The notes: a model not told the origin generated them from the sequence alone. Counted from the first letter of the stretch, positions 380-57,338 are shown. The stretch: 64,000 bases of DNA from an uncultured Verrucomicrobiae bacterium (GCA_963726745.1 CAVSDR010000005.1:1-64000), one strand, 5' to 3'. Program-made: numbers and translations.

Positions 380-1030
380 CCGTGCCGGTTCACCAGGTAG
401 AGCAGCGGGTAGAGAAAAACCCAGACGACGTCGACGAAATGCCAGTAAAGGCCTAGCAAGTCGATCGGCTGGTCGTGATCGCGGAAGGAATCGAAGAGCC
501 AGGCGCGGAGCGCGAAGAAGCCGAGCAGTCCGATCCCGATTGTGACATGCAGCGCGTGCACCCCGGTCAGCAGCCAGTAGAGATAGAAGAACATCTCGGC
601 GTGGCGCGGATCGTTGCCGGCAAATTGGAAACTGCTGCCCCGGCAGGAGGTGCTCATGGATTTCGTGGGCATACTCCACGCCCTTGATCGCGAGGAAAGC
701 GATGCCTAACGAGGCCGTCACCAGGAGGAGCAAGCCGAGCAGCCCACGACGATTCTGTTGCGCCGCGCGCACCGCAAAGGCCATGACCGCGCTGCTCACG
801 AGCAGCACCGCGGTATTGACCGATCCGAATGCAACCAGCGTATGCCGGCTCGCTTCCGCGAAGGCCTCGGGATAGGAAATCCGGTAGACGGTGTAACCGA
901 GAAACATTCCGCCAAAAAAGAGGACCTCGGTCGCGAGGAAAATCCACATCCCCATGGTCGAGGCTTCGCGCTGTTGCGCGGCATCGTCGAACTGATGCTC
1001 GACCGGTCCGAGGGTGGTCGCTTCAGGCAT
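376..1030 (-). CDS. coxC: cytochrome c oxidase subunit III (frameshift near 640)
   Basis: GMWIFLATEVLFFGG in one frame, continued by LTGVHALHV and GLYWHFVDVVW in another. Confidence 0.9.
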
Positions 1031-2680
1031 GCGCTGGCTCCTTTGCCTCCTCGGCCGCGGCGTCGTATTCGTAGGGTCCCTCGGTCACAACCGGTGTGAG
1101 CTCAAAATTATCCTTCGGCGGCGGGGAGGAGGTGGTCCATTCCAGCCCCGTCGCATTCCAGGGATTCGGGCCCGAAATTTTGCCGTAGCGCCATGACCAG
1201 AGCAGATAGGTCAGCGGTAAAAGGTAACCGAGTGCGAGGATCGACGCGCCGGCGGTAGACAGCACATTGAGCACTTGGAATTCCGGCGCGTAGACGTGGT
1301 AACGCCGCGGCATTCCCAGATAGCCGAGGATGAACTGCGGGAAGAAGGTCAGGTTAAAGCCGGCGAAAATTGTCAGCGCGGAAAGTTTCGCCAGCCATTC
1401 CGGGATAGAGCCGCCCGCTGATTTTCGGCCACCAGAAATGGAGGCGCGCCGAGGTAGGCCATGACCATGCCGCCGACCATGATGTAATGGAAATGCGCGA
1501 TCACGAAGTAGGTGTCGTGCACATGCACATCCACCGCGAGCGCCGCGAGGAAGAGCCCGGTCAGCCCGCCGATCATGAAGAGACCGATAAAACCGAGCGC
1601 GTAGAGCATCGGCGTCTGAAAACGGATCGAGCCCTTGTAGAGGGTCGCGGTCCAGTTGAAGACCTTGATCGCCGACGGGACCGAAACCAGGAAGCTGAGG
1701 ACGGAGAAAATCATCCCCGCGTAGATCGACTGGCTGCTGACGAACATGTGGTGTCCCCAGACGAGGAAACCGAAGACCGCGATGGCCACGCTCGAGCCAG
1801 CGATGAACTTGTAGCCAAAGATTTTCTTGCGCGCGAAACAGGTGATCAGCTCGCTGACCACCCCCATGCCCGGGAGGATCATGATGTAGACCGCCGGGTG
1901 CGAGTAGAACCAGAAGAGATGCTGGAAGAGCAGCGGGTCGCCGCCTAACGAGGGATTGAAAATGCCCACGCCGAAGGCCCGCTCGAGGGCCATGAGCGTA
2001 AGGGTGATCGCCAGCACTGGCGTCGCCAGGACCATGATGATGCTGGTGGTGTAGAGCGACCAAACGAAGAGCGGGAGCCGCATCCAGGTCATCCCCGGCG
2101 CGCGCATCTTGTGCGTGGTCACGATGAAGTTCAGCCCGGTGGCGATGGAGCTAAAGCCGGCGATGAAAATGCCGGTCGCCATCGCGATCACGTGGCCATT
2201 CGCGTAGGTGCTGCTGTAAGGCGTGTAGAAGGTCCAGCCGGTATCGACCCCGCCGGAGACGATGGCGAAAAGCGCGAAGGCGCCGCCGAACATGAAAAGA
2301 TACCAGCTCGCCAGGTTCAGCTTGGGGAAGGCGACATCGCGCGCGCCAATCATCAGCGGCAGGAGAAAATTTCCCAGCACCGTCGGGATCGACGGGATCA
2401 GGAAAAACCAGACCATGACCACGCCGTGGATCGTGAAAAGGCGGTTGTAAGTCGACGAGGTCACGAGGTCGCCCTGCGGCGTCAGCAACTCCAGCCGCAT
2501 GAGCGTGGCCGCCGCGCCGCCGATCAGGAAAAAGAAGGTGATCGAGACCATGTAGAGCAGCGCGATCCGCTTGTGGTCGGTGGTGAAGAACCACGAGCGC
2601 AGAGTGACCTGCTCGTTCAGGTAAGTGCGGCGCTCGCGCGCGACCGGTTGCGGCTGCGCCTGCGGGGTGGCCGCGATCAT
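1023..2680 (-). CDS. coxA: cytochrome c oxidase subunit I, type A (frameshifts near 1400-1445)
   Basis: [43 protein letters not shown] motifs. Confidence 0.95.
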
Positions 2681-3628
2681 GGCTGCGCCTCCAGCTTGCT
2701 GCCTAACGATTTCAAATAGGCGATGATCGCATTCAACTCTTCCTCCGAGATCTGCCCCTGGTAGGTCGGCATGACCGGCTCGTAGCCGGCGGCAATCTGT
2801 TTGTTAGGCAGCAAGATGGAGTCGTGCAGGTATTGCTCGTCCGCGGTCACCAGGGTTCCGTCGGAGAGCGGCACTTGGCGCCCAAAAATCCCGTCCAGCA
2901 AAGGCGCGCGCACGGTCGCGTTTGGCGCATGGCAGCCGCTGCAGCCGCGGGCGTGGAAAGGCGCGTGCGCCTTCGCCGATGAGCGACTCCGCCGGCGGTT
3001 GGCCCGCGAGCCAGCGCGCTTGTTCCGCCGGTTCCTGCACGTAGATCGTGCCGACCATTTTCGAGTGATCGGTCCCGCAGTATTGCGCGCAGAAAAGGTG
3101 ATACTTTCCCGGCTTCGTGGGCGTGAACCACTCGGTGGTGTAACGCTCCGGGAGCACATCCTGTTTGTTCCGGAAACCGGGGATGAAGAAGTCGTGGATC
3201 ACATCCTGCGAGATCATGATCAGCTTCACCGGCTGGCCCACGAGCAGGTGAAGTTCGTTGATCTCGCGGCGGCCATCCGGGTGCTGGATCTTCCACATCC
3301 ATTGCTTGCCCACGAGGTAGATTTCGCTCGCGTTCGCCGGCGGGCGCGACATCCCGAAGAAGACGTTCGCGGCCCAGAAGAAGATGCCGAGAAAGAGGAG
3401 CAGCGGCACGATTGTCCAGGTGAGCTCGAAGGGCAGCGTCGAGCGTTTAGCCAGCACTCTGTTCGCCTTCGACCCGCGCCGATAACGCACGCAAAAGAAG
3501 AGCGCCACCGCCACCACGAGCAGCGCAACCACCGAGCAGAGCGCGAGCAGGGCGAAGAAGATCGCGTCGACCGCGGGCGCGTGGTTCGAGGCCGACGGCG
3601 GAAAGAGCGAGGTGAAAAAGGTGCGCAT
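2677..3628 (-). CDS. coxB: cytochrome c oxidase subunit II with C-terminal cytochrome c domain, caa3 type (frameshift near 2960)
   Basis: DVIHDF and [12 protein letters not shown]uA motif; downstream frame carries the CSGCH heme site and MPTYQGQ. Confidence 0.92.
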
Positions 3629-3633
3629 GGAAG

Positions 3634-4425
3634 CTAGACGGCCGGACGCGCGTCACGGCGCAGTTGCAAAACGATGTAGCCACCGAGGAGCAACGCGCTC
3701 CCGATGCCCGCGACCTGGATGACGCGGCCGATGAGCAGCCCGTATTTGCCGGTCGCCGGGTTGTAGTGAAAGCAGAGCAGGAAAACGCGGTCCGCGAGCG
3801 AGCCGACGCGCTCCTGCGAGGCCTCGATCAAAGCCAGCCGGACGTCGCGCGCGGGGTATTCGATTCCCGGGAAATAGCGCGCCACCTTGCCGGCCGGCGT
3901 GAGCACGGTGAGCACGCTCGGATGGGCAAATTGCCGCGTCGCCTCGTCATAGGCGAAGCGGTAGCCGACACTTTGGGCGAGGCGATCAATCGCCGCCTTG
4001 TCGCCGGTAAGGAAATGCCAGCCGTCGACCGCGCCCGGCCGCCCGTAGCGCTCGATGTAGGTCTGCTTCTTGGCCGCGGCCAAAGCCGGGCGCTCCCGCG
4101 GATCGAAGCTCACGACCACGATCTCGTATTCCTTCCCGGCGTCGAAACGGAGGTCCTGCGCGCTTTGCAGGACGCCGTTGAGCACGAGCGTGCAGAGGCT
4201 CGGGCATTCGTAATAAGCGAGCGCGAGCAGGACGGGCCGGCCTTTGCTGAAGAAGCTCCCGAGCGCGACCGCGTGGCCGTGCTCATCGCGCAAGACGGCG
4301 TCGAGCGGGACCTGCGCATGCAGCTTTTGCTCCAGGCCAGCCTGCGCCGCGACCTGTTCCTGCGATGGCTGCGCGACGGCGGTGGCGGCGCAGCAGCAGA
4401 TGAAAATGAAGAGCCATCGCTTCAT
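3634..4425 (-). CDS. SCO1/SenC copper chaperone
   Basis: YYECPSLC (CxxxC) and conserved FAH; signal peptide and C-terminal helix. Confidence 0.9.
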   Translation of the reverse strand: MKRWLFIFICCCAATAVAQPSQEQVAAQAGLEQKLHAQVPLDAVLRDEHGHAVALGSFFSKGRPVLLALAYYECPSLCTLVLNGVLQSAQDLRFDAGKEYEIVVVSFDPRERPALAAAKKQTYIERYGRPGAVDGWHFLTGDKAAIDRLAQSVGYRFAYDEATRQFAHPSVLTVLTPAGKVARYFPGIEYPARDVRLALIEASQERVGSLADRVFLLCFHYNPATGKYGLLIGRVIQVAGIGSALLLGGYIVLQLRRDARPAV

Positions 4426-4847
4426 TGCCGCGATGCCTCCGCTTTGCGCCGCTGCATTTCCAGCGAAGTCACGCCGCTCGCATCCGGCGTTCCCGCGCCG
4501 CGCGTCGGCAGGCCGCGCTCCGCGAGCAACTCCATCGCACGCGTGATCGGGACGTGCGCGATCCCGGCAGCACGATCGACCCAGCCGTAGCTGGCGAGCT
4601 TCGCTTCCTCCGCGGCTTCGTATTGCGCGAGGTCGACCTTTGGGAACACCTGCAACCGCGGCGGCGGTGCGGCGAACTTTGCCTCGAACGCGATCCGCGA
4701 GGCGGCCTGCGGCGAAGGATGGAGCCGCTTAAAAAGCTGGTGGAGCGGGACGAGCCCGGCGCCGATGAGCACGAGCGCGAGCGCGAGGCCGGCGGCAAAG
4801 CCAACCACGAGGCGGACGCTAGCATCGCGCGTTTCGTGTTTAGGCAT
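4422..4847 (-). CDS. small membrane protein between actF and sco (ActG-like)
   Basis: MPKHETRDASVR, one TM helix, PPPRLQ...YGWVDRAAGIAHVPITRAMELL; position within the ACIII operon. Confidence 0.7.
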   Translation of the reverse strand: MPKHETRDASVRLVVGFAAGLALALVLIGAGLVPLHQLFKRLHPSPQAASRIAFEAKFAAPPPRLQVFPKVDLAQYEAAEEAKLASYGWVDRAAGIAHVPITRAMELLAERGLPTRGAGTPDASGVTSLEMQRRKAEASRQ

Positions 4848-5964
4848 CGGGCGTTTCCTCCAGGAGTTCGCGCGCGACCAGCGGTCCGTGCCGCAAAAAA
4901 TGCAGGAAAGCGGCCGCCCAGAATCCGCCGAGCGCGAGAAAGAGCGTGAGATCGAGCCAGTGCACGCGGAAGCCCGCCGGCGTGAAGGTGGGCGCGACCA
5001 GCCAAAAGCTGTGGAGGACATTAGCCGACAAGATGAGCGCGCAGATAAAGAGCAGGCGCTGCCGGTTTCTCTTGGCTGCGCGCGAGAGCAGCAGGAAAAA
5101 CGGCAGGAGGAATTCCGCCGCCATCAGGAGGACGGCAAACGTCTTCCAGCCGCCGCGGCTGCGGTCGAGATACCAGCCGATTTCGCGCGGCAAATTACCC
5201 GACCAGATGATGAGGAATTGCGAGAAAGTGACGTAGATCCAGAAGATCACGAAAGCCAGGAGCAGGCTCCCGAGATCGTTAAAAACCTTCAACGGGATGC
5301 GGTCGCCTAACGAGCGGTCGCGCGCGGCGAGCGCCAGCATCCCGGTGAGAAGCGCGAGCGCGCCGAGGAAATGCCCGGCCATGAAGATGACCACGAAAAT
5401 GGTCGAGAACCATTCCGGATCGAGCGACATCGCCCAGTCCGTCGAGGCGAAGTTCATGCAGAGCACGTAGGCGATCAGCCCGCCGGCGCTGAGCACGGTC
5501 AGGCGCGTGGATACTTCCCGCGGATCGTTTTGCGCGAAAGCCAGGCGGCGCAGAAAAACTGCCAGCAGGCTTAGGAGCCCGAGGTAAAAGAGCGAGCGCA
5601 CGGTGAAGAACGGGACCGTGAGCCATTGCGCCCGGTGATGGTAGGCGCTGCCTTCGAAGCCGTGCGTCCAGGAATAGATGTCGCCCAGCCCGTGGAGCAC
5701 AGGGAGGAAGAGCAGCGCCATCAGCGGGACGGTCCCGATGGCCGCGAGCGCGAATGGGCGCAGGGCCAGGCCCCACATTCCGCCGGTGAGGAATTGCATC
5801 ATCAGGATGACGAGCGCGCCAAACGAGAGCCCGCTCCAGAAGAGCCACGCGAAGAGGTAAGCGTGGAAGAACTCCGCGCGGCTAACGAACAGTCCAACGA
5901 ACGAAAAGGCGGCCGCGATCGTGCCCAGCAGGAGGAACGGCATGCGCCAGCGGCTGAAGTTCAT
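4840..5964 (-). CDS. actF: alternative complex III subunit F
   Basis: Polytopic membrane protein with DWAMSLDPEWFSTIF and FSQFLIIWSGNLPRE. Confidence 0.88.
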   Translation of the reverse strand: MNFSRWRMPFLLLGTIAAAFSFVGLFVSRAEFFHAYLFAWLFWSGLSFGALVILMMQFLTGGMWGLALRPFALAAIGTVPLMALLFLPVLHGLGDIYSWTHGFEGSAYHHRAQWLTVPFFTVRSLFYLGLLSLLAVFLRRLAFAQNDPREVSTRLTVLSAGGLIAYVLCMNFASTDWAMSLDPEWFSTIFVVIFMAGHFLGALALLTGMLALAARDRSLGDRIPLKVFNDLGSLLLAFVIFWIYVTFSQFLIIWSGNLPREIGWYLDRSRGGWKTFAVLLMAAEFLLPFFLLLSRAAKRNRQRLLFICALILSANVLHSFWLVAPTFTPAGFRVHWLDLTLFLALGGFWAAAFLHFLRHGPLVARELLEETPDA

Positions 5965-6530
5965 GGCTGCGCGGCCTCCAGTTCTTTGCGGCCGGACTCG
6001 TCGGCCTCGGCCGGGGCGGCGTGCTGGCTCAATTGCAGCGCGCGGATGTAGGCCGCAATCGCCCAGCGATCGGCCGGCGGGACCCGGGAAGCGTAGGAAT
6101 ACATCACCCCGTAGCCGCGCGTGATCACATCCACGAAGTGTCCCGGCGGCGCCTCGCGCAGGCGCGCTTCGTGGAACGAGGGCGGCGGCGGGAAGCCGCG
6201 CTGCACGATCATTCCATTGCCTGCGCCAGTGAGGCCGTGGCAGACCGAGCAGTAGATATTGTAGCGTTCCCGGCCGCGCGCGAGCAGCGCGGGCGTGACC
6301 GGCTCAGGAAAGGTGGCGGCCAATTGGTCGCCTATTTTGCCAGTGAAGAACTGCTCGTCCGCGCGCAGCTGGCCGCGCGCGACGGTGTGCGCCGGCGGGA
6401 CGCGGGCGGCACGGCCATCGGCGAAGAAATTTTCCTCGGCGAGCGGCTTGAGCTTTTGCTGGTCGACCATCCCGCGCCGGCAGGAAACGAGCGCGGCTGA
6501 GAAAAGAGCCAGCAGAATGAGTCGTCTCAC
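5961..6530 (-). CDS. actE: alternative complex III monoheme cytochrome c lipoprotein subunit E
   Basis: GTG start overlapping the actD stop; lipobox-like LVSC; MVDQQK; CSVCH; GYGVMYSY. Confidence 0.88.
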   Translation of the reverse strand: MRRLILLALFSAALVSCRRGMVDQQKLKPLAEENFFADGRAARVPPAHTVARGQLRADEQFFTGKIGDQLAATFPEPVTPALLARGRERYNIYCSVCHGLTGAGNGMIVQRGFPPPPSFHEARLREAPPGHFVDVITRGYGVMYSYASRVPPADRWAIAAYIRALQLSQHAAPAEADESGRKELEAAQP

Positions 6531-7060
6531 CGTTCGACCTCCGTGACGCGCTCCGCGCCTAACGAGTGCAGGAACAGCCGCACCTCCTCCGCCTGGAAAA
6601 CGTGGTCGCGCGCCTCGATGCAAAGAAAGAAGCGCGTCTGGCTGGCCAGCTGGAACCCGGGCGCGTTGAAGACCGGGTGATGGAGCCGCGGCAGGCCGTT
6701 GCGGAAGAGCATCCCGAAGACGCCGGCAAGAGCCGCGAAGAGCACCGTGAGCTCGAAGGTGATCGGGACAAACGCGGGCCAACTATGCTCCGGGCGGCCG
6801 CCGACATTCAGTGGGTAATCGATCACCGCGGAATACCACTGCATCCCGTAGGCCGTGACCGCGCCGATGATTCCGCCCAGCAAAACCACCAGCGGCATCC
6901 GGGTTTTCCGAAAGCCGATCGCCTCGGCTACGCCCTCGACCGCGTAGGGCGAATAGGCGTCCATTTGGCGATAGCCGGCAGCGTGGGCCGCGCGCGCGGC
7001 GTGGAGCAATTGCTCCGGCTCGCGGAATTCCGCCATGATTCCGTGCAGCGGCGCGCTCAT
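6527..7060 (-). CDS. actD: alternative complex III subunit D (DUF3341)
   Basis: GIMAEF...DAYSPY...YPLNVGGRP...PITFELTVL. Confidence 0.9.
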   Translation of the reverse strand: MSAPLHGIMAEFREPEQLLHAARAAHAAGYRQMDAYSPYAVEGVAEAIGFRKTRMPLVVLLGGIIGAVTAYGMQWYSAVIDYPLNVGGRPEHSWPAFVPITFELTVLFAALAGVFGMLFRNGLPRLHHPVFNAPGFQLASQTRFFLCIEARDHVFQAEEVRLFLHSLGAERVTEVER

Positions 7061-8412
7061 TTCCGGCCCTCCTTTTTCTCGTGCACCAGCTCGCGCATTT
7101 CGCTGATGGAAATAGCCGGCAGGATGCGCAGGAAGAGAAAGAGCAGCGTGAGGAAAAGTCCGAAGGAGCCGATGAAGGTGAGCCAATCCCAGCGCGTCCC
7201 GTGGAACATTCCCCAGGAGGACGGGAGAAAATCGCGATGCAGGCTGGTGACCACGATGACGTAGCGCTCGGTCCACATGCCGACATTGACCAGGAGCGAG
7301 ATGACGAAGAGCGCGGGGATGCTCGTGCGGACTCGCCGGAACCAAAGCGCCTGCGGCGTGAGGACATTGCAGGCGATCAGGATCCAGTAGGCCGGCCAAT
7401 ACGGGCCGAGCATGCGATTGACCGCGAGGTAGATCTCGAAGCGGTCATCGCTATACCAGGCCATGAAGTTCTCCGTGAGGTAACCGTGCGCGACCATCAG
7501 CCCGGTCGCGAGCATGACCTTGGCGGCATTTTCCAGATGCCGCAGGGTAATGAAATCCTGCAGCCCGTAGACGTGGCGGATGGGAATCGCGAGCGTGAGC
7601 ACCATCGCGAAGCCGGAGAAGATCGCGCCGGCGACGAAGTAGGGCGGGAAGATGGTCGAGTGCCAGCCGGGGACGATGGCGATGGCAAAATCCAGCGAGA
7701 CCACGCTGTGGACCGAAAGGACCAGCGGCGTGGCCAGCCCCGCGAGGAGGAGATAGACCACGTGAAAGCGTTTCCAATGTCTCGCCGAACCGCGCCAGCC
7801 TAACGAGAGGATGCCGTAGAGCCGCGCGATCGTCCGGTTGCCCGCGCGATCGCGCATCGTGGCCACGTCCGGGAGCAGCCCGACATACCAAAACAGGAGC
7901 GAGACCACCAGGTAAGTCGTGACCGCAAAGACATCCCAGACGAGCGCGCTGCGCCATTGCGGCCAGAGGCCCATGGTATTCGGATACGGCAGGAGCCAGT
8001 AGAAGACCCACGGCCGCCCGAGATGGAGCAGCGGAAAGAGCCCGGCGCAGGCGACCGCGAAAAGCGTCATCGCCTCGGCGAAGCGATTGATCGAGGTGCG
8101 CCAATCCTGATGCAGGAGCAGCAGGATCGCGGAAATGAAAGTGCCTGCGTGGCCGATGCCGATCCACCAGACGAAATTGGTGATCGCGAAGCCCCAGGCC
8201 ACCGGCTGGTTCACCCCCCAGATGCCCACGCCCTTGAGCAGGAGCCACGCGATCGTGAAGAGGAACAGCATCAGCAGCGCGAAGGCCGCGGCGAAGCCCA
8301 GGATCCAGCCGCGCCGCAGCGGCCGCTGGAGGACCGCGCCTGCGATCTTCGCCGTCACCGAGGCGTTGTCGTAGCCCGGCGCAACGATCGGTTCCTGCAC
8401 TTCGGCGCTCAT
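7057..8412 (-). CDS. actC: alternative complex III NrfD-family quinol-binding subunit C
   Basis: NFVWWIGIGHAGT, INRFAEAMT, HLGRPW, SVHSVVSLDF, WHSTIFPPYF. Confidence 0.95.
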   Translation of the reverse strand: MSAEVQEPIVAPGYDNASVTAKIAGAVLQRPLRRGWILGFAAAFALLMLFLFTIAWLLLKGVGIWGVNQPVAWGFAITNFVWWIGIGHAGTFISAILLLLHQDWRTSINRFAEAMTLFAVACAGLFPLLHLGRPWVFYWLLPYPNTMGLWPQWRSALVWDVFAVTTYLVVSLLFWYVGLLPDVATMRDRAGNRTIARLYGILSLGWRGSARHWKRFHVVYLLLAGLATPLVLSVHSVVSLDFAIAIVPGWHSTIFPPYFVAGAIFSGFAMVLTLAIPIRHVYGLQDFITLRHLENAAKVMLATGLMVAHGYLTENFMAWYSDDRFEIYLAVNRMLGPYWPAYWILIACNVLTPQALWFRRVRTSIPALFVISLLVNVGMWTERYVIVVTSLHRDFLPSSWGMFHGTRWDWLTFIGSFGLFLTLLFLFLRILPAISISEMRELVHEKKEGRK

Positions 8413-11150
8413 GACGCGGCGAGCTCCGGGTTCAGGTTCACCAGCTTCGCGAGGTAGGTGGTGCGCGGACGGGTGTTCAATTCCGCGAGCAGACCGTAGT
8501 TCAAGGGCGAGGCGCGCAGCCGGGCCACGCGGCTGCCGGCGTCATTCAAGTCGCCAAAGACGATCGCATCCGCCGGGCAGGCTTGGGCGCACGCGGGCAC
8601 GATCGCGCCGTCGGCGATCTCGCTGTTTGTTTTGCGCGCCTCGATTTTGACCGCGTTGATCCGCTGGATGCAATAGGTGCACTTCTCCATCACCCCGCGG
8701 CTGCGCACCGAGACGTCCGGGTTGCGCATCAGCTTGCGTGTGGCGGGCTGCTCGAATTGGTTCGCGTCGTATTCGAGGAAATTGAAGCGCCGCACTTTGT
8801 AGGGGCAGTTGTTCGAGCAATAACGCGTGCCGATGCAGCGGTTGTAGACCATCTGGTTAAGGCCTTCGCTGCTGTGGACGGTGGCCGCGACCGGGCAGAC
8901 GAGCTCGCAGGGCGCGTTCTCGCAATGCATGCACGGCACCGGCTGGTGCAGCACCCGGTCCCTTTCGAGGTAGCGATCGACGCGGATCCAATGCATCTCC
9001 CGCCCGCGCGCGACCTGTTCCCGGCCGACCACCGGGATGTTGTTTTCCGCCTGGCAGGCGATCGTGCAAACGCCGCAGCCGATGCAGGTCTGGAGATCGA
9101 TCACCATCCCCCAGGCGTGCCCGGCGTAAGCGACCTTTGGATAAAGCGTTTCCTCCGCGGTCGGCGGCGGTTCGCCCGCGCGCGCCGGCGCGGCCGGATT
9201 GGCCGAAAATTGCGCCAGCGTCCCCGTGCGGACCAGGTCGCGTCCGTGCATGTCCCAGTGCTCCTGCGTGGTCACGAGCTCGTGCCGCGCGCCGGTCTTC
9301 GCCAGCTCGAGCCCGGCCCCACCCCAGAGTGCGTCGCTCGTGCGCAAGGCCGCGGCGTTGAAGCCGACGCCATTCCCCACGCTCCCGGCCGCGGTCCGTC
9401 CGTAGCCCAGGTGAATCGTCACCGAGTCGTCCGCTTGCCCAGGCAGAATCCAGACCGGTGCGCGCAACGAGCGGCCGCGGAGATTCAGCTCCACCACATC
9501 GCCGCTTTCCAACGCGCGCTCTCGCGCGAGCGCCGGACTAACGAGCGCCGCGTTATCCCAGACGATCTGCGTCAAAGGGTCGGGTAATTCCTGCAGCCAG
9601 GCGTTGTTCGCGAAGCGGCCGTCGAGCAGGCGCGGGCTCGGGCGGATGAGCAAGTGGAGGGGATTTCCGAGTTGCGAATTCTGAGTTTCGATCGGCGACG
9701 AAACGGTCGGCGGCAGGCCAGGTTCTGCGACCACGCCGTCGTGCACCGCTTGGCGCCACCATTGCTCGAAGTCGGGCGCGGAATGCTGCGCCTGCCAATG
9801 GGCGCGCACGATTTCGTAAGCGCTGGCCGGCGGTTCCTCGAGCAAAACAGACAGCAACTCGTGCGGCGAACGCCCGGCGAAAAGCGGCTCGATCATCGGC
9901 TGCTGGATCGTGGCCGTGCCGTCGAAAGCGCGGGCATCGCCCCAGGTCTCGAGCGCGTGCGCCTGCGGCAGGTGCCAATGGCAAAGCGCCGCGGTCTCGT
10001 CCCGGTAAAGGCCGAGATGGACGCTCCGCGGCAGCTTTGGCAGCAGCTCGGCGAACTGAAAATCTGCCGGCGCGTTGTGCACGGGATTGCCGCCGAGAAC
10101 GAGGAGCGTCTCGACCGTGCCCGCCCGCATCTCGCTGGCTAATTCCGCGAAGTCGCGCGCGGCTGTCGGCGTTTCGCCGGGATACTCGACCGTCTGCCCG
10201 ACGTTGCCTAACGACTCGTTAAGTTGTCGCGCGAGCGCCTGCACCTCGGGGGCTTCGTAGTCACCTGCGACCACCAGGGAACGCCCGGCGTGGGCCCGGA
10301 GGTCGCGCGCGATCGGGTGATCGCCCGCGAGGAGGTGGCGCGCAAAATCAGCCAGCGCCCTGGCCCCGACGACGAAACGATGATCCGCCATCGTCCCGGT
10401 GAGCGTAGGCGTGGACTCGGCCGCGTAGAGCCGATTCATCCCGCGCTCCGGCCGGCGGCGGGCGGCGAATTGCCGGGCATAGCGCGGCGCGGCCGGGCCG
10501 GTGGCGAGGAAATCCGCGCCCAGGCTCAGGATCACTTCCGCGCGGTCGAAATGGTAAATTGCGCGCGGCGCGTTCCCCGCCAGCGGATCGAAGACGTGCC
10601 ACTTCGCCGCCGGAAATTTAGCCAGCACTTTGGCGATCTGCGCGAGGAGCGTGGGCGAAGTCTCGTGCTCGGTGAGAAGGCGGAGCCCGGCGCCGCCATT
10701 CGCTTTCCATTGCCGGAGCGCGCCCGCGAGCTCGCCGAGAAAGTCATTCCAAGTCGCGACCGACCCGCGATGCCACGCCGCCTGCGAACGCTCGGGATCG
10801 TAGAGCGCGAGCAGCTCCGCCTGCAGGAAAACATCGGTCGCGCCGAGGCTCGCGGGATGTTGCGGGTTGCCCTCGATCTTCGTCGGCCGGCCTTCGTGCG
10901 TTTCCACAAGCACGCCGCGGGCATAGCCGCCGAGGGTAAGGGCGGTCGCGTAATAGAGGGGCTTCCCGGGAATGATCTCCTCCGGCTGGACGCGGTAGGG
11001 GACGATCGTCTCCCGCGGATTGCGGGTGCAACCGGCGGTCGCGAGCGCAACCGATGCGCCCATGAGCTGGAGGAAGCGCCGGCGGCTCAACTCATGGGGC
11101 CAATCGCCGGCGCCGAGCGGGAATTCCTCCGGTGTCCTTAGCGATGACAT
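8409..11150 (-). CDS. actB: alternative complex III subunit B (molybdopterin-like domain fused to Fe-S domain)
   Basis: Tat motif [63 protein letters not shown]. Confidence 0.95.
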
Positions 11151-11794: not shown

Positions 11795-11858
11795 CCAAAA
11801 GACCGGGTGCCGGACTGCGCATCATCTATTTATCGCAGCGCACGGGCTGGCAGACGTT

Positions 11859-14074: not shown

Positions 14075-14126
14075 TGCGCGGAGGTTATCGCCCGCGAGGA
14101 GGCAATGCAATCGATCGCTCTCGCTG

Positions 14127-15803: not shown

Positions 15804-15847
15804 GCGGTTTGGATCGTCGCGCAGGTGCGCTACGCTTGCCAAGCGCC

Positions 15848-17680: not shown

Positions 17681-17681
17681 T

Positions 17682-44175: not shown

Positions 44176-44376
44176 CTGTCCTTTGGTTCGCCGCGCCGCG
44201 CGGGACTGGTTGCATGAAACCTCGCCGGAAGTGAATCCGGTCGATGACAGAAATATAATGTAATCTCTGCGTCCAAAACACGCGCAGTGCGTAATCACCG
44301 CCCGATGGAGTGGAACCGTCGCCTCCCACGTCGGGATGCATCCACGGCCAACCTCCATCGGATAACCCCATCAACC

Positions 44377-47836: not shown

Positions 47837-47857
47837 TCGCCGCGCATCGCGAAAATC

Positions 47858-47895
47858 AGCACGGCCCCGGAGCAATCCGGGGCCGTGTTTGTTTC
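47858..47895 (+). terminator. intrinsic terminator between convergent genes
   Basis: AGCACGGCCCCGGA-GCAA-TCCGGGGCCGTGTT hairpin followed by a T-rich tail. Confidence 0.85.
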
Positions 47896-47913
47896 TCCGG
47901 GAATCGCCGAGGC

Positions 47914-49254
47914 CTACAGGGCGGCGAAGGCCGCGTCCAGCACCTCCAGCAGGAAATCGGCGTCTGCTTTCGTGAGGCACATGGGCGGGGAAAAGCGGAT
48001 CGTCTGGCCCCAGAGGCCGCCCTTGCCTAACAAGAGGCCCATGTCCTTGGCGGTCTCGAGCACCTGGGCGCACTCGGCTTTAGCCGGCTCTTTGGTCGTG
48101 CGATCCTTCACCAGCTCAATTCCGAGCATGAGACCTTTCCCACGGACGTCGCCGATGATGTTGTGCTTCTCCTGCAGGCGGCGGAGACCGCCTAACAAGT
48201 GGTTGCCTATTTCCAGCGAATTAGCCTGCAACTTCTCCCGGTCGATCACGTCGAGCACAGTGCTGCCAATCGCAGAGACCACCGGGTTGCCGCCGAAAGT
48301 GTTGAAGTGAATCCGCTGCGCCAAGGCCTGCGCGATCTTCGGCGTGGTCACGACTGCGCCGAGCGGCGCGCCGTTGCCGATGCCCTTGGCCATGCAGACG
48401 ATGTCCGGGAGCACGTCCTGCGTCTCGAAGCCCCAGTAATGCGAGCCGGTGCGACCAAAGCCGGCCTGCACTTCATCGGCGATGCAGACGCCGCCCGCGG
48501 CGCGCACATGTTCGTAGGTGTGCTTCAGGTAACCGTCCGGGAACACGATCACGCCGCCCACGCCCTGGATCGATTCCGCGATGAACCCCGCCACTTTCCC
48601 AGGCGTGGCGTAGTCGATCAGGCTCTTCACATCGTCGGCATACTTGCGTCCGGCGTCCACATCGTCGCGACCCCAGACGCCGCGATAAGGATCGGGCGTG
48701 AGCGCGTGGTGCACCCCGAAGCTGTGCGGGATGTTGTATTTCCAGGTATGATGCGCGGTCAGTCCCATGCCGCTGGCGTTGCCGCCGTGGTAGGCGTTGC
48801 GCAGCGCGATCATGTCGTAGTTGCCGGTGTAGGCGCGCGCCATCAGCAGCGCGAGATCGTTCGCTTCCGAGCCGCTGTTCACGAAGTAACAGACCTTCAG
48901 GTCGCCCGGCATCTTGCTGGCTAATTTCTCCGCGTAGGCGCCCACGTTCGGGTTCAGGTAGATCGTGGTCGAATGCTGCAGGAGCTCGTTCTGCTTCCGT
49001 GTTGCCTCGACCACGTCCGGGTGGCAATGCCCCACGCTCACGGTCACGATCCCGCCGAGCGCATCGAGGTAGCGCTTGCCGGTCTCGTCCCAGACGTACT
49101 GCATCTTTCCCTCCACCATCATGAGGGGCTTCTTGTAGTAGAGAAAAATGCCGGGATTGAGGAATTGCTTCCGTTGCGCCATCACTTCGTCGGCCGAGGG
49201 ACCGGAGTAAGGCGCGGGTTGGAAGTCGGTGGGCGGGAGCTGAGGTGTGTTCAT
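47914..49254 (-). CDS. class III PLP aminotransferase (AGXT2/beta-alanine-pyruvate aminotransferase-like)
   Basis: [50 protein letters not shown]. Confidence 0.9.
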
Positions 49255-50741
49255 AGGCGGGTGGTCAGGCGACGCAACGCGAGGTAAAGCAGGAACGCAA
49301 TCGCGAATCCGACGAACCAGGCATAGCTGTAGAGGCTCACGAGGAAAGCCGGCACGCTCGAGGCGCTGACTAATTTCACGGTCACGAGAAAGCCGGGAAG
49401 GTTCGGGAGAATCGCCCCGCCTAACGAGAGCAAAGCGGCCACGCTGAAACCGTTGCTGTAGCGGTATTCGCCCTCCGGCGCGTAGAGCGCGGGCACGTTG
49501 AGCTTGGTTTTTCGGACGACGAAGTAATCCGCGATCATGATCCCGCCGATCGGGCCGAGGAGCGCACTGTAACCGATCAGCCAGGTGAAAATGTAGCCGC
49601 TCGGATCGGCCACCAGTTTCCACGGCATCATGAAGATGCCGGCTATTCCTGTGATCAAGCCGCCGGTGCGGAAGGAAATTTTCCGCGGCGCGAGATGCGC
49701 GAAATCGTTCGCAGGACTGACGACATTGGCCGCGATGTTGGTCGCGAGGGTTGCGAGACAAAGCGCGAACATTGCGACCACGAGGACGACCGGGTTGGTG
49801 AATTTAGTCAGCACGTCGACCGGATCCCAGATGGTCACTCCGTAGATGATCGTGGTCGCGGAGGTCACGGCGACGCCGATGAAAGAATACAGCGCCATCG
49901 TCAGCGGCAGGCCGAGCGCTTGCCCGACAATCTGGTCGCGCTGCGAGCGCGCGTAGCGCGAGAAGTCCGGGATGTTGAGCGAGAGCGTCGCCCAAAAGCC
50001 GATCATGCCGGTCAGCCCTGGGATGAAGAAGGCCCAGAACTGTCCCTCTTTCGGCTGCCCCGGCGCGAAGGCCGAGGGCTGCGCGAGGATCGGCCCGAAG
50101 CCGCCGGCGTTCTGGTAAGCCCACGCGAGGAGCGCCAGGCCGAGCGCGATCAAGAGCGGCGCCTTGATGTTCAGGAGGAAGCGGATCGACTCGATCCCCT
50201 TGTAGACCACGAACATGTTGATCGCCCAAAAGAACATGAAGCAGCCGAAGGCCGGCAGGCTGATGCCCAGAAATGTCGCCAGTCCCGGTGCGCCTAACGA
50301 GGGGAAAAAGACGCCGAGGATTTTGTAGATCGCGGCGCCGCCGATCCACGTCTGGATGCCGAACCAGCCGCAGGCGACAAACGCGCGCATGAGCGCGGGC
50401 ACGTTCGCGCCGCGGGTCCCGAACGAGGCGCGGCAGAAGACGGGAAACGGAATCCCATACCGCGTCCCGGCATGCGCATTCAGGATCATCGGGATCACCA
50501 CGATCAAGTTGCCGAGAAAGATCGTCAGGATCGCCTGCGACCAATTCATCCCGCCGCCGATGAGCGACGACGCCAGCATGTAGGTCGGGATGCAGGCCGA
50601 CATCGAAATCCAGAGCGCGGCGAAGCTGCCTACGCGCCAGGTGCGCTTGGCGCGGGGGACCGGCGCGAGGTCGGCGTTGTAGAGCACGCTCTCTGCGATC
50701 TCGAGCGAGACTTCCACATCCGGAACGTCGGCCGTGTCCAT
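49251..50741 (-). CDS. NCS1 nucleobase:cation symporter
   Basis: YNADLAP, LWISMS, YGIPFPV...[17 protein letters not shown]. Confidence 0.93.
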
Positions 50742-50827
50742 GCGGAGGCAGAGACTGCCGAAGCCGGCCCGCGTGGGCAACAGGAAAGCATCTTTCCATT
50801 CGCGCGCCGGCCCGCTAGAAGCCTCTC

Positions 50828-52072
50828 GTGTTCCTCCGCTTCGTGAGCGCCCTCGGTCTCGTCTCCATGCTGGCGGCCGCCTGGGCGCTCTCGCGCGATC
50901 GGAAAAACTTTCCCTGGCGCACGGTCCTCTGGGGGCTCGCACTGCAAGCAAGCTTCGCCGTCTTCATCCTGAAAACATCCGTCGGCCTCGCGGTCTTCGT
51001 GGCCGCGCAGCGTTTGATCGACAAGCTGAACGTCTTTGCGCTCGAAGGCGCGCGCATGGTCTTCGGTCCGCTGGCCGATGGCGATGCTTTGAAGGGCGCC
51101 TTCGGTCCGGCCAATGGCTACGTCTTCGCCGTTTTCATCTCGGCCACGATCATCTTCATCTCCGCGCTCTCCGCGCTGCTCTATCACTGGGGCGTGCTGC
51201 AGCGCGTGGTCCACGCGATGGCCTGGGTCATGCGCAAAGCGATGCGCACCAGCGGGAGCGAAAGCCTGGGCGCCGCGAGCAATATTTTCCTCGGCCAAAC
51301 CGAAGCCGCACTCCTCATTCGCCCCTACATCCCGCGCATGACCATGAGCGAGCTGATGGCGCTCATGACCACCGGCATGGCCACGATCGCGAGCGGCGTC
51401 ATGATCGTCTACGCGCAGCTCGGGATCGACGCCGGGCACTTGTTAACTGCGTGTGTCCTGAGCGCGCCGGCCGGTCTCTTGATCGCGAAGATCATGTTTC
51501 CGGAAACCGAAGTGAGCGAGACGCGCGGGAGCGCCTCCGCCGAAGTCCCGCGCACCACCGTGAACAGCATCGACGCGCTCTGCCGCGGCGCCGGCGAAGG
51601 CATCGCGCTCGCGATTAATGTCATCGGCATGCTCATCGCCTTCGTCGCGGTGGTCGCGCTGGCTAATTACCTTTTCACGACCGCGCAGCGCCTCGGCGGC
51701 GTCGCGCAGCCGTTCACCATCCAGCACGCGCTCGGCTGGCTCAACTGGCCCTTCGCCCTCCTGCTCGGCATCCCGCCTAACGACTGCCAGCTCGTCGGCC
51801 AGGTGCTCGGCGAGCGCATCGTGCTCAATGAATTCGTCGGCTATCTCTCGCTCGCGCAGCAGAAGGCGCAGCTCGCCCCGCGCAGCTTCACCCTCGCGAC
51901 CTACGCGCTCTGCGGCTTCGCAAATTTCTCCAGCATCGCCATCCAGATCGGCGGCATCGGCGCGCTCGCGCCCGAGCGTCGCAGCGACCTCGCCCGCCTC
52001 GGCCTGCGCGCCATGATCGGCGGCTTGCTCGCCTGCTACCTCACCGCGGCGCTCGTGGGCGTGCTGCTTTAG
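50828..52072 (+). CDS. concentrative nucleoside transporter (CNT/NupC family)
   Basis: NIFLGQTEA, GMATIAS, NEFVGY, YALCGFANFSSIAIQIGG. Confidence 0.93.
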   Translation: MFLRFVSALGLVSMLAAAWALSRDRKNFPWRTVLWGLALQASFAVFILKTSVGLAVFVAAQRLIDKLNVFALEGARMVFGPLADGDALKGAFGPANGYVFAVFISATIIFISALSALLYHWGVLQRVVHAMAWVMRKAMRTSGSESLGAASNIFLGQTEAALLIRPYIPRMTMSELMALMTTGMATIASGVMIVYAQLGIDAGHLLTACVLSAPAGLLIAKIMFPETEVSETRGSASAEVPRTTVNSIDALCRGAGEGIALAINVIGMLIAFVAVVALANYLFTTAQRLGGVAQPFTIQHALGWLNWPFALLLGIPPNDCQLVGQVLGERIVLNEFVGYLSLAQQKAQLAPRSFTLATYALCGFANFSSIAIQIGGIGALAPERRSDLARLGLRAMIGGLLACYLTAALVGVLL

Positions 52073-53453
52073 CGCGCGGCCGTTGCCCGTCGCAGCATCT
52101 GCCCGCGGCCGATCGTGCCGACGAATTTTCCGTCGCGCACCGCGACTTCGCCGCGCACCGTGACCACGCTGGGGCGGCCTTCGATTTCCCAACCTTCGAA
52201 GGCGCTGTAGTCGACGTTCATCAGCTGCGTTTTCGCGGAGATCTTTCCGCGATAGTCCGGGTCGTAGACGACGAGATCGGCGTCGGCCCCGGGCTGGATC
52301 GTGCCCTTGCGCGGGAAGAGGCCGAAGATTTTCGCGGCATTGGTGCTCGCGACATTGACGAAGGTGTTCAGGTCGAGCTTTCCGGTCTTCACCCCGTGGG
52401 TAAACAGCAAGTTCACCCGCTCCTCGAGCGACGGGATGCCGTTCGGGATCTTGGTGAAATCATCGCGGCCCATCGGCTTTTGCGTCAGGAAATCGAAGGG
52501 CGCATGATCCGTCCCGACGGTTTGGATTTCGCCGCTGCGCAGTGCCATTCCAGATCACCGCTTGGTTGCGCTTGTCGCGCAGTGGCGGCGACATGACGAA
52601 CTTCGCGCCTTCGAAAGTCCGGCCGCTCCGCATCGGTCTTATCGAGCACGAGATATTGGATCAAAGTCTCGATGCTCACCTCCACGCCGCGATGCCGCGC
52701 CGCGAGCGCTTCGCGCAGGGCTTCGTCGCAGCTCAGGTGGACGATGTAAACGCGGGCGCCGGTCAGCTCCGCGAAGGTCATCAAGTGATGCACCCCTTCG
52801 GCTTCGACGATCGGCGGCCGGCTCTCGTGATGTTGCTCCGGCCCGGTCAGGCCCGCGCCTAACAACTCCTTTTGCCGTTCGGTCACGAGGGTTTCGTTCT
52901 CGCAGTGCGCGGTCACGATCACGCCCAGTTCGCTGGCTAATTTCAGCGTGTGATAGAGCTCGGTGTCGTCGATCCCGAAGGCGCCCTTGTAGGCCAGGAA
53001 GATTTTAAACGACGAGATGCCGGCCTCGACGATCGCGCGCAGCTGCGCGGCGTTCTCCGCGTCGAAGCGGGTCACGCCCATGTGAAAGGTGTAATCGCAG
53101 GCCGATTTTCCCGCCGCTTGTTCCTGCCAAAGCGCAAAGCCCTCGGCCGCGCTCATCGCGCGCGGCGGGCAGACCATCTCGAAGATCGTGGTCGTCCCGC
53201 CGACCAGCGCGGCCTTCGAGGCGGTCTCGTAGTTGTCCTTCGAATAGGTGCCCATGAAGGGCAGGTAGATGTGCGTGTGCGGATCGATGAAGCCGGGGAA
53301 GACATACTTCCCGGTGGCGTCGATCACTTCGCAGCCGGCCGGCGCTTCCAGGCCCGGGCCGATGCGGGTAATGGTTTCGCCTTCGCAAAAAATATCCGCC
53401 ACGTAGCGTTCGCTCCCGGTGACGATCTCGCCGTTCTTGATCAGTAATGCCAT
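52069..53453 (-). CDS. hydA: dihydropyrimidinase (frameshifts near 52546 and 52612)
   Basis: PGFIDPHTH, GGTTT, SFKIFLAY, HCEN, VHLS, GTDHAPF, IPNGIP. Confidence 0.9.
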
Positions 53454-53553
53454 GGGTCGTTCGCGTCGGATGATGCAAAGTCGGCGCGGCGCTGTCCACT
53501 CCGCGCATCTCCCCGTTTGAGGGAAATCCTTCGCCGGTCGATCTTCCCCGCCA

Positions 53554-56370
53554 ATGGAAGCGGCGCAGGCATTGTCGGAGGCGGGTTGCGACGTTCGCTT
53601 CGACAACCTCACGCGCCAGCTCTACGCGACCGATGCTTCGGTCTACCAGATCGTGCCGCAAGCGGTCGCCTTCCCGCGCGGCGCGCAGGAAGCGAGCCGC
53701 GATCATTCGTGCCGCCGCCGACGCGAACATTCCCATCACGCCGCGCGGTGCCGGCAGCGGGCTGGCCGGGGGCGCGATTGGCGATGGCCTGGTGGTGGAG
53801 TTCTCGCGGCACAACCGCGCGATCTCGGAGTTGAACCTGGAGCGACAGCAGCGTGCGCTGCGGCGCAGGCGTGGTCCTGGATCAACTAAACGCCTTCCTC
53901 CGGCCGCACGGCTTCGCCTTCGGTCCCGATGTGGCCACAAGCTCGCGCGCGACCATCGGCGGGATGATCGCGAACAACAGCTCCGGCGCGCGCGTGCCGG
54001 TTTACGGCACGACTGCGGATCACGTGCGCTCGCTCGAACTCGTCCTCGCCGATGGCACCGTGCGACAAACAGACAGCAACCTCTTCGCCGCGGAGAAGGC
54101 GCGCTTCGCGCAGATGATCCAGGCGGAGGCGGCGGCGATCGACGAGTGGCTCCCGCCCGGTTTGCAAAAACGCTGGCCGGGCTACGGAATCGATCGCTTC
54201 CTGCGCCAGGCGCCGACGATCGAGAATTTGCTCGCCGGCAGCGAAGGGACGCTGGCGGCGATTTGTTCCGCGGAGTTAAAGATCGTGCCGCTCCCGCGCG
54301 AGAAAGGTCTCGGTTTGCTCTTCTTCGCCTCGGTCGCGGAAGCGATGCAAGCCACGGTCGACCTGCTCGACCTCCACCCGGCGGCGATCGAGCACATCGA
54401 CCGGGTGCTCTTCGACCAGACGCGCGGGCAGCTCAATTTCCAGGCTGCGCGCGACCTGCTCGAGCTCGATACCAAGCCGTGCGAGGCCATTCTCCTGGTC
54501 GAGTTCTACGACCAAGTAGCCGACAAATTGCACTCGTTAGCCGCGCGCCGGCTCGGCTTGCGCACGACCATTTGCCGGACAAACGCCGAGATCAATCTCG
54601 TCCTCGGAATGCGCAAGGCGGGGCTGACCCTGCTCACCGGGATGATCGGCTCGGCCAAGCCGGTGACCTGCATCGAGGACACCGCGGTGCGGCCGGAACA
54701 GCTCCCGGCTTACGTCGCCGGCTTGCAGGGAATCATGCAGCCGCGCGGCCTGGAAGTTTGCTACTACGGGCATGCCGCGACCGGGCTGCTCCATGTGCGA
54801 CCGGTGCTCGATCTGCACAATGCGGCCGACCTCCAGACTTTCCGTGAAGTCTCAGACGAGGTCGCGGCGCTGGTGCGGCAATTCAAAGGCTCGCTCGCAG
54901 CGGAGCATGGCGTCGGCATCGCGCGCACCGAATACATGCCCGGCCAACTGGGCGAGCGGCTCCTGCGTTTAACCAGCGAGATCAAGGCGACGTTCGATCC
55001 GCAGAATCTCTTCAACCCCGGCAAAATCATCCCGGACGGCCGCTACCGGCTCGACAACGCTCCTGCGCACCAGCAGCTATCGCGAGCACGGCTTGCCCTT
55101 CGAGCCGCGGCTGGCCTTCGCCTTCAAAGACCGGTCGTTCATCGGCAATCTCGAGCAGTGCAACGGCTGCGGCGGTTGCCGGAAAGATGCGCCCACGATG
55201 TGCCCGACGTTCGTCGCTACCGGCGAGGAATACATGTCGACCCGCGGCCGCGCGAATGCGATCCGCGCGGCGCTCGAGCTGCGCACCCGAGGCGACGATC
55301 CGCTGCGCGCGCAAGAGCTCGAAGAAGCGCTCGGCAATTGTCTCTCCTGCAAAGCCTGCACGGTCGAGTGCCCGTCGAACGTGAACCTCGCCCTGCTCAA
55401 GGCCGAGCTGCAATACGCCCGCATTCGCCGCGACGGCCTCTCGCTCCGCGCGCGAATGCTGAGCGCGGTCGACTTGTTAGGCCGGCTGGGCACACTTACG
55501 CCGGGGCTGGCGAACTGGGCGCTCGAGTTCGCGCCGCTGCGCGCGCTCATGGCGAAAGTGCTGGGTATTTCTGCGCAGCGCCCCTTGCCGCATTACGCGC
55601 AGGAGCGGTTCGATCGTTGGTTTAGCCAGCAACCTCAGCGCGCCGGAGCGCGCGGCCGCGTGATCCTCTGGGACGACACTTTCGTGCGCTACCACGAGCC
55701 GCACATCGGCATCGCCGCGGTGAGCGTGCTCGAAGCGCTTGGCTTCGAGGTCTCGTTAGCCAAAGGCCGGCGTTGCTGCGGGCGGCCGGCCTTCAGCCAG
55801 GGAAATCTCGATGCCGCCAGCCGGATGGGGCAGCACAATCTCGATCTCCTGCGCGGCGGCGAGGAACCGATCCTGTTCCTCGAGCCGTCGTGCTATTCGA
55901 TGTTTGCCGAGGATTACCGCGAGCTGAAGCTGGAAGGCTTCGAGGCGGTCGCGGCGCGTTCGTTTCTCTTCGAAAAGTTCGTCGCCGATTTACTCGAGCG
56001 CGAGCCGGCGGCGCTCGCCTTCCGGGAAACAACCGGCAAGATCGCGATTCACGCGCATTGCCATGCGAAGTCGCTGATGAAACCCGGCTTCATGGCGCGG
56101 CTCGCCGGCCGCCTGCCGGGGCGGGAAGTGCAATTGCTCGACACCGGCTGCTGCGGCATGGCAGGCGCGTTCGGCGCGCTCGACGCGAAGTATCGGCTCT
56201 CGGTGCAGGTGGCCGCGCCGCTGGTGGAGAAGATCGCCGCGCAACCGGCGGGCGCGACGATTGTCGCCTCCGGGACGAGCTGCCGGCATCAGATCGAGCA
56301 TCTGACGCCGGCGAAGCCAAAGCACATGGCCGAACTCTTGGCCGACGCGCTTCCGACGACGACTCGTTAG
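53554..56370 (+). CDS. FAD-binding and Fe-S-binding oxidoreductase (YdiJ/GlcD-GlcF fusion type; frameshifts near 53697, 53855, 55060)
   Basis: YATDASVY, RGAGSGLAG, TIGGMIANN, EHGVG, CNGCGGC, CLSCKACTVECP, CCG motifs. Confidence 0.88.
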
Positions 56371-57338
56371 GCCGGGCCGCCCATTGCGCCGAGCGCCCGG
56401 CGCGCCGTCCCGGCCTGGAGGTATTTGCCCCAGCTGAGGTTGTCCTGCCCGGGGACATGCGCGCGCGCCTTGCGCAGGCACATCTCGCTGACTGCTTCCA
56501 CGACCCAGTCGAAGTTCTCCTGGCCGACGCTCGTGACTTCCGCATCGGGCGCGGGGTTGCAGAAATCGATCGCCACCGGGACGCCATCGCGGATGGCGAA
56601 CTCGACCGTGTTCAAGTCGTAGCCTAAATATTGGTTCAATTGCAGGACGCCCCAATGAACCTTGTCGAGGATCTCCTTGGGCGCCTGCCAGTCGGTCTGG
56701 TAGCGAAGGTGATACGGGTTCCGCGGCTCGTAATTCATGATCTTCACGTGCCGCTGATCGATGCAGTAGCAGCGGAAGTACATGTCGAACTTCACTTCCT
56801 CCTGCAGCATCATCACGAGTTGGCCGGTCTCGGCGTAGGCGCGGAAGAATTCCTCGGAGTTGTGCAGCCGGTAGACGTTTTTCCAACCGCCGCCGGCGAA
56901 GGGCTTGAAGAACGCGGGCCAGCCGACGTATTGGAAAATGCCTTCCCAATCGAGCGGGTAAGCGAGGTTGCGGAAGGAGCCGTCGGAGGTGTCGGGCGGC
57001 AGCTGGTGCGAAGGCAGGAGGACGGTCTTCGGCACCGCGACGTCGATCTTGGTTGCGAGCGCGTTGTTGAAGAACTTCTCGTCCGCGCTCCACCAGAAAG
57101 GATTATTGACCACCGCGCAGCCAGCGAGCGCTTCGTTCTTGAGCCAGGCGCGGTAGAAGGGAACGTCCTGCGAGATGCGGTCGACGACCACGTCGTAGCC
57201 GGTCGGCTCTCCCTGGATCACCTTATCGATGCGGACGAATTCGGCCTGCACTTCGCCCCCGCCTTTCTCGTTGATCCGCTGGACGAGCGCAGGCGGGAAG
57301 CTGTTTTCTTGACCGAAGAGGATGCCGACTTTTTTCAT
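56367..57338 (-). CDS. ATP-grasp fold protein (RimK/glutathione-synthase-like)
   Basis: DRISQDVPFYR, NNPFWWSADEKF, FFKPFAGGGWKNV, LQE, EFAI..AIDFCNPAPD. Confidence 0.85.
   Translation of the reverse strand: MKKVGILFGQENSFPPALVQRINEKGGGEVQAEFVRIDKVIQGEPTGYDVVVDRISQDVPFYRAWLKNEALAGCAVVNNPFWWSADEKFFNNALATKIDVAVPKTVLLPSHQLPPDTSDGSFRNLAYPLDWEGIFQYVGWPAFFKPFAGGGWKNVYRLHNSEEFFRAYAETGQLVMMLQEEVKFDMYFRCYCIDQRHVKIMNYEPRNPYHLRYQTDWQAPKEILDKVHWGVLQLNQYLGYDLNTVEFAIRDGVPVAIDFCNPAPDAEVTSVGQENFDWVVEAVSEMCLRKARAHVPGQDNLSWGKYLQAGTARRALGAMGGPA

Follow-up and report, generated by a model that had tools for sequence, protein, structure and literature searches.

The window analysed here is the whole 64,000-nucleotide stretch CAVSDR010000005.1:1-64000 of an uncultured Verrucomicrobiae bacterium (GCA_963726745.1), with a GC content of 64.2%. 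It harbors coxA, hypE, hypF, selA, selB, a Ca exchanger, nrfD and an ABC transporter gene, whose identities were confirmed; the remaining gene names are those of an initial annotation of the window. Running through these genes is a short word, word A (TCGTTAGGC), found in 33 copies, with CTCGTTAGGC in 24; apart from words made only of G and C, these are the commonest 9-mers and 10-mers of the window. A second word, word B, is also present. The two words are unrelated, and each occurs more than 1,000 times in this genome, at a cost in codon and amino-acid choice. The features of the window are the following.

704..59104, both orientations: word A (TCGTTAGGC; extended form WSSACTCGTTAGGCRR), 33 copies
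704..712, minus strand: word A read as Ser-Leu-Gly in coxC
1943, 5305, 6557, 7798, 10206, 11207 and 17808: further word A sites in the Ser-Leu-Gly frame
18555, 23124, 32328, 36914, 37369, 49419 and 50292: remaining word A sites in the Ser-Leu-Gly frame
15004..15012, plus strand: word A read antisense as Pro-Asn-Glu in the ABC transporter gene
22348, 28561 (hhyS), 31464 and 42080: other word A sites in the Pro-Asn-Glu frame
20792 and 51775: word A in the same antisense frame, read as Pro-Asn-Asp
35964..35972, plus strand: word A read as (Leu)-Val-Arg in selA; also at 31789 and 39794
16402: word A in the same frame, read as Phe-Val-Arg
14474..14482, plus strand: word A in a fourth open frame, Gly-Leu-Thr-Asn with the rare codon CTA
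39046..39054, minus strand: word A as both stops of the convergent selB (TAA) and nrfD-like (TAG) genes
56364..56372, plus strand: word A as both stops of two convergent genes
20478..20486, plus strand: word A as the TAA stop of a minus-strand hyp gene; another TAA stop at 59096
2701..2709, minus strand: single intergenic copy of word A; another at 34818
5020..63419, strand both or unstated: word B (WWTAGNC-RRC-RMNWT), 29 strict copies

Apparent frameshifts or fusions, probably due to assembly errors, affect several genes at 101-1030 and 26306-28853 (coxC, hydrogenase subunits) and lower the completeness of the gene calls. Sequencing runs covered small shares of the stretch (0.16 and 0.07) and have no evidence value.

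Across the genome (3,406,779 bp in 7 contigs) there are 1,312 copies of the word A 9-mer, 631 forward and 681 reverse, or 385 per Mb; an order-4 Markov model from which the word was not removed predicts 84. A motif fit recovered about 2,100 sites with 17.8 bits and a nearly invariant T-Y-GTTAG core. The extended consensus, W-S-S-A-C-T-C-G-T-T-A-G-G-C-R-R, is common to all four open reading frames of the word and to 275 intergenic copies, and the flank preferences, corrected for codon position (W at -5, A at -2, C at -1, RR after the word), do not depend on the frame. A self-trained hexamer gene finder called 3,000 genes, 2,786 of them confident, with apparent frameshifts splitting several long genes. 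Coding copies number 447 in the Ser-Leu-Gly (SLG) frame, 232 in the xLT frame, 218 in the Pro-Asn-Glu (PNE) frame and 73 in the Val-Arg frame. In the confident genes the respective counts are 445, 227, 214 and 71, while 20 shuffles of synonymous codons that kept protein and codon usage gave means of 6.4, 2.9, 12.0 and 0.5 (957 copies in all versus about 22). The two closed frames, with TAG or TAA, serve as stop codons in 278 cases (154 of 892 TAA and 124 of 1,060 TAG), and a single copy supplies both stops in 33 of the 112 convergent gene pairs with a 4-nt overlap, those at 39046 and 56364 of the window among them.

The constraint on word A therefore acts at the DNA level and proteins are altered to accommodate it, as the initial annotation had proposed; it was also right that the word is no by-product of a protein motif. 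The sites it listed are all present in the frames it gave (SLG, PNE and Leu-Val-Arg, LVR). SLG copies in called genes number 14, to which the coxC copy at 704 is added; one of the 14, in actB at 10206, had been overlooked. So had the Leu-Thr frame (xGC CTA ACG Axx, e.g. 14474), which is the second commonest in the genome and raises the three open frames described to four, the use of the word as a stop codon, and word B. The statement that TTA codons sit mostly in word A does not hold, as the word contains 17 of 55 in the window and 774 of 2,788 (28%) genome-wide; another 603 lie in word B, which explains many of the others. AGG and CCT, cited as further disfavoured codons, are likewise found mostly outside it (91 of 662 and 233 of 3,433 inside). 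The expectation that the tripeptides are mostly encoded by the word was borne out for SLG (445 of 753, 4 expected) and PNE (181 of 244, 11 expected) and failed for LVR (60 of 537).

Comparison with orthologs, for which relatives were sampled at 100-400 kb each and not as whole genomes, was the check proposed for SLG and PNE enrichment, and its outcome follows word density. Against the word-poor congener G002 (242 orthologs) this genome has 19 PNE versus 0 and 50 SLG versus 30; against the denser G302 (124 orthologs) the relation is reversed, with 10 PNE versus 34 and 43 SLG versus 63. Of 58 word A sites compared with G002, 57 align ungapped, with a residue identity of 0.63 at these sites and 0.77 overall; the changes toward the word include ALG, ELG or TLG to SLG and PEQ or PKE to PNE. 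The same drop in identity was found in six of seven relatives, the exception being G124 (0.74 vs 0.73). Judged from these alignments, word A copies arise by substitution at permissive sites. Six of the seven coding copies in G002 coincide in position with copies in this genome, suggesting relics of an older, denser state. Some sites are also shared with other genera (17 of 54 with G302, 12 of 34 with G053). Using GC content at third codon positions (GC3) and sequence identity as proxies, word A is scarce in foreign-looking and in highly constrained genes: its density is 0.11 per kb in genes with GC3 of 0.65-0.72 and 0.22 per kb in the most conserved gene class, versus 0.51-0.54 in typical genes. 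The largest gaps without the word are lower-GC clusters, which appear from their sequence to carry polysaccharide genes.

Word B has the consensus RAAWTAGCCRGCRMSWTS, half-palindromic around GCCRGC, and 980 strict coding copies versus 18 after codon shuffling. Both consensuses are graded over 14-18 bp (17.8 and 15.8 bits). A probe pattern for word B had 387 matches in this genome, compared with 0-16 in each of 60 others and 0-18 in each of the 33 further members of the genus, so that among the 34 genus genomes searched it is dense in this one only. A third word, word C (AAGATCGACAW), which contains GATC and TCGA, has 4,514 copies in G053 (2.9 Mb), 4,025 in G156 and 2,399 in G066; eight members of a different genus (g24) hold 171-1,056, this genome holds 17, and the count in 14 outgroup genomes is 0-13. 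It is also the main word of G041. It raises the tripeptide KID to 35 versus 3 in 82 orthologs. Words A and C are found together in G053 (1,803 and 4,514 copies) and in G156. A possible fourth word, AATGACGAA, and a relaxed variant of word A, TCGTCAGGC, were seen at L076-L078 (G078) and L058-L062 (G323). About 200 genome matches to GTTGGCGTT come from a tandem 6-bp repeat array and are unrelated to the words.

Within about 200-300 bp each word avoids its own copies, whatever their orientation, but is indifferent to the other word. With positions shuffled 500 times within 10-kb blocks and pairs counted at 20-200 bp, 82 A-A pairs were found where 197±14 were expected and 51 B-B pairs where 90±9 were expected, counts as low being reached in none of the 500 shuffles in either case, while A-B pairs numbered 317 with 281±16 expected. 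The ratio for word A is 0.39, versus 0.84-1.94 for forty control 7-mers. In 150 kb of G053 observed over expected pairs were 3/20 for A-A, 25/78 for C-C and 97/79 for A-C, and in G066 14/35 for C-C; the samples from G089 and G041 were too small. Word A has no polarity, since 591 of 1,185 copies match the sign of the local GC skew, which is weak in this assembly; for word B the figure is 426 of 840. Relative to gene direction 520 copies of word A are sense and 450 antisense. A terminator role was ruled out because close inverted pairs are rare, and a promoter or regulator site because density is lowest in divergent spacers (0.52 per kb, versus 0.71 in tandem and 0.97 in convergent ones). No convincing match to a dif-like site was found.

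Word A marks one family of Chthoniobacterales, whose public records include Ca. Udaeobacter. In a survey of 301 genomes of the order, the 9-mer was present in all 40 genomes of the family (22-4,336 copies, at least 140 in 37 of them), compared with 0-45 copies in 260 genomes from 15 other families; the tallies take in the unpublished G001, G008, G181, G196 and G330, on which no claim rests. Within the family density spans about 200-fold and falls to background in G217, and the 10-mer has 51-1,549 copies over 24 other genomes of the genus. Of 59 named records with a protein of the family, 57 bear the label Verrucomicrobia, Chthoniobacterales or Ca. Udaeobacter, and a look-up of a pilin likewise pointed to Verrucomicrobiota. 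Some matches look different. In the outgroup G262 (L087, G262:C14:127437-129046) four attC-like repeats in tandem begin with the 9-mer, and the same-strand clusters of matches seen in further outgroups probably represent cassette arrays as well. In the family genome G041 (L033-L034, G041:C1:417462-423387) four same-strand copies lie about 2 kb apart among AT-rich genes, each followed by similar sequence, in a cassette-like arrangement.

Word A is also carried by two provirus records, G325 and G326, which have portal and other head genes and hold 21 copies in 25.5 kb and 15 in 42.7 kb; they were found by searching for the word and are thus a selected sample. Among 81 viral loci with one extended copy, 4 have at least three copies, these two records included; three further scans gave 1 of 89, 0 of 76 and 0 of 120 such loci, nearly all matches being single and due to chance. 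Relatives of the portal proteins were present in 20 of 301 order genomes and 0 of 40 family genomes, and the 76 kb surrounding them in the order genomes contained no copy of word A.

Several genes for natural transformation were found, namely comEC, dprA, the PilT family and pilins (16 prepilin matches over the cut-off). A FimT-like pilin scored far below PpdA-type cut-offs, ComN/PpdA being the minor pilin predicted as a receptor besides ComP. As readers of the word two pilins were rejected: a PilV-like pilin near dprA, which has matches in 17 of 32 family genomes and misses seven dense ones, and the FimT-like pilin, with close matches in only 5 other genomes among 57. Two paralogous minor-pilin trios (G000:C6:623578-626133 and C3:584422-586936), one of them 2.6 kb from dprA, contain neither word A nor word B. 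At G000:C5:155144-158683 there are three major-pilin-like genes with membrane-protein genes between them, two with an identical first half and one apparently frameshifted. The family also has a protein with a signal peptide, a staphylococcal-nuclease domain and a ComEA-type helix-hairpin-helix (HhH) domain (L534-L540). HhH matches were found in 22 of 42 genomes examined, and the seven loci read encode this secreted, ComEA-like nuclease-HhH fusion. More than 300 copies of word A per Mb occur in 8 of 19 genomes with the fusion and 0 of 20 without it (p=0.039, a weak association, as related genomes are not independent).

Words A, B and C may be self-DNA tags of the kind known as DNA uptake sequences (DUS) and uptake signal sequences (USS), spread by transformation drive and with one reader per word; we give this reading as a whole a probability of about 0.5. 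In such a system a sequence-preferring protein in natural transformation would favour word-carrying fragments, at pilus uptake, passage through the periplasm or hand-over to recombination. Point mutations that create a word would then spread wherever the protein tolerates the change, which is a molecular drive. If these bacteria are transformable, one copy per short fragment would suffice and a second within about 200-300 bp would gain little, and two USS within 100 bp are reported to add no uptake (PMC7811141); if every word is read by a separate protein, each at a different step, the words would not exclude each other. Drive would explain the more than 1,000 word B sites in one lineage, the wide density range, the permissive residues and the short-range saturation. 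Besides the DNA-level constraint with its amino-acid changes, the lack of polarity, self-avoidance without cross-avoidance, restriction to one family, the low density in genes that look foreign, the two provirus records and the presence of comEC, dprA, pilins and PilT speak for this reading.

A number of results weigh against this reading. Words A and B do not suppress each other, which would be expected if either sufficed, so the additional assumption of separate steps is needed. Self-avoidance is weak in the densest genome, G302 (99 A-A pairs versus 131 expected), and in this genome there is no excess of inverted pairs: of 17 pairs no more than 60 bp apart, 6 are inverted, and close pairs as a whole are depleted. 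SLG and PNE encoded by the word are conserved no less than other SLG and PNE (32 of 130 vs 13 of 53, p=1). Competence machinery does not discriminate, since comEC is intact in G217, which has no word A, and PilT is present in 13 of 14 outgroup genomes. No reader was found among the minor pilins, ComP and nuclease-HhH proteins examined. PilV-like and FimT-like candidates do not track word density. The ComP_DUS profile reached 21.9 bits with a cut-off of 27.3, over the N-terminus only, although a receptor may be divergent. This genome, at 385 copies per Mb, has no intact nuclease-HhH fusion: the nuclease part stands alone, with an HhH remnant elsewhere (G000:C4:17230-17874; C2:230178), and its one HhH match looks frameshifted. 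Finally, known DUS dialects have a common CTG core and one of them dominates each genome (PMC3630211); words A and C have no common core and coexist densely.

The words may instead be sites of intracellular sequence-specific DNA-binding proteins that shape the nucleoid, load repair or mark self, each serving or covering about 200-300 bp, with selection on the cell keeping one site per stretch. This is a serious alternative, although we consider it less likely. It explains the spacing as well as transformation drive does, and self-avoidance without cross-avoidance follows directly from separate proteins, with no need for competence; the graded consensus resembles a protein site, the link to uptake genes is weak at most, and carriage by proviruses and the sites common across genera fit as well. 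However, it has difficulty with the 200-fold density range in the family and the background level in G217, and the rapid gain of more than 1,000 word B sites in one of 34 genomes would be easier by drive than by weak selection on each site; no candidate protein was found. A by-product of protein motifs or codon bias might be suspected because both SLG and PNE rank in the top four tripeptides by over-representation, but the loss of the word on codon shuffling, the same consensus in four frames and between genes, and a tripeptide excess that tracks the word refute this.

Word A also contains GTTAGGC, and the core of integron attC sites has the consensus GTTRRRY, so it might be an integron or Xer-type recombinase core, dispersed or read by a domesticated tyrosine recombinase. 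The repeats of G262 and the cluster of G041 are in favour of this, as is the frequent use of word A as the TAA stop of a gene, since cassette ends often carry the stop of their gene. Nevertheless, only two tyrosine recombinases are present, the same number as in G217, pairs with attC geometry number 12 versus about 29 at uniform density, the copies lie in core genes without indels, and words B and C are left unexplained, so that this origin is very improbable. Just as improbable is a Chi-like or FtsK-orienting (KOPS-like) polar signal for a helicase-nuclease or translocase: in its favour are a non-palindromic form, lineage specificity and carriage by proviruses, but there is no tie to skew sign or gene direction. 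There remains a mechanism like that of the highly iterated palindrome HIP1, in which a methyltransferase or methyl-directed repair or recombination converts near-matches or favours DNA with the modified word. The core behaves as all-or-none, one-base variants at T-x-GTTAG being few, word C includes GATC and TCGA and word B is half-palindromic, and methylated HIP1 raises transformation in Synechococcus (bioRxiv 2024.09.10.611283). Yet the words are non-palindromic with long graded flanks, and the few methyltransferases revealed by a crude sequence-pattern scan include two at contig ends where the word is absent, none of them being tied to a word; we regard such a mechanism as improbable.

Returning to self-DNA tags, we tentatively suggest that the family runs multi-word self-tagging, in which unrelated words with their own fast-evolving readers are gained and lost independently, spread within the lifetime of a species and rewrite the proteome. 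That coexisting words are spaced without regard to each other points to separate readers, and genomes with A only (G302), A and B (this one), A and C (G053, G156), mainly C (G041) or none (G217) offer a built-in contrast for finding them. If the readers act in transformation, sequence-selective DNA uptake would have arisen here for a third time independently, and for the first time with more than one tag in a genome. Uptake sequences are described from only two families, both proteobacterial (bioRxiv 2025.10.24.684340). Finding a third case in Verrucomicrobiota of soil would allow an origin by drive to be tested against one by selection, and the words would matter for any transformation of these bacteria, most of which are uncultured. 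Should there be a cause other than uptake, amino acids in core enzymes are being altered by chromosome-wide protein sites of a class not yet described. Either way the words can be used as markers in contig binning and in assigning prophages to the family. A literature search by exact 9-mer and by topic returned no description; subscription journals were mostly outside it, and k-mer lists in supplements could mention the words.

Among known systems, the likeness to HIP1 of cyanobacteria lies in a hyper-abundant genic word without strand bias that is linked to transformation efficiency (bioRxiv 2024.09.10.611283), but HIP1 is a palindrome holding a methyltransferase site, whereas the words here are non-palindromic and no methyltransferase was linked to them. 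With integron attC, word A shares GTTAGGC and the 9-mer that opens the repeats of G262, but it occurs as single dispersed copies in core genes, with no paired hairpin and no integrase in this genome. The initial annotation had likened the word to DUS and USS, and the genomic pattern agrees. Like the USS of Pasteurellaceae, word A has a 9-bp non-palindromic core with weaker flanks, occurs about once per 1-3 kb on both strands and in coding DNA, is scarce in new segments and constrained genes, and is found on temperate phages, which accumulate USS in Pasteurellaceae (PMC7811141, PMC6776037). It differs in its unrelated sequence, in the coexistence of two unrelated words, in having no identified receptor and in spacing: 23% of USS have another one less than 100 bp away (PMC7811141), and close word A pairs are depleted here. 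About half of DUS and USS lie in predicted terminators (bioRxiv 2025.10.24.684340), whereas inverted terminator pairs were sought and not found here, nor was ComP, the receptor for DUS; instead of a single dominant dialect there are A and B in this genome and A and C in G053 and G156. For these three reasons the words are not assigned to the DUS/USS class. They are nonetheless similar to the DUS of Neisseriaceae in being restricted to a family, in varying between lineages, in their hundreds to thousands of copies and in a frame bias away from stops (bioRxiv 2025.10.24.684340, PMC3630211), and in genomic pattern they appear to resemble the self-DNA uptake tags of the DUS/USS type most closely.

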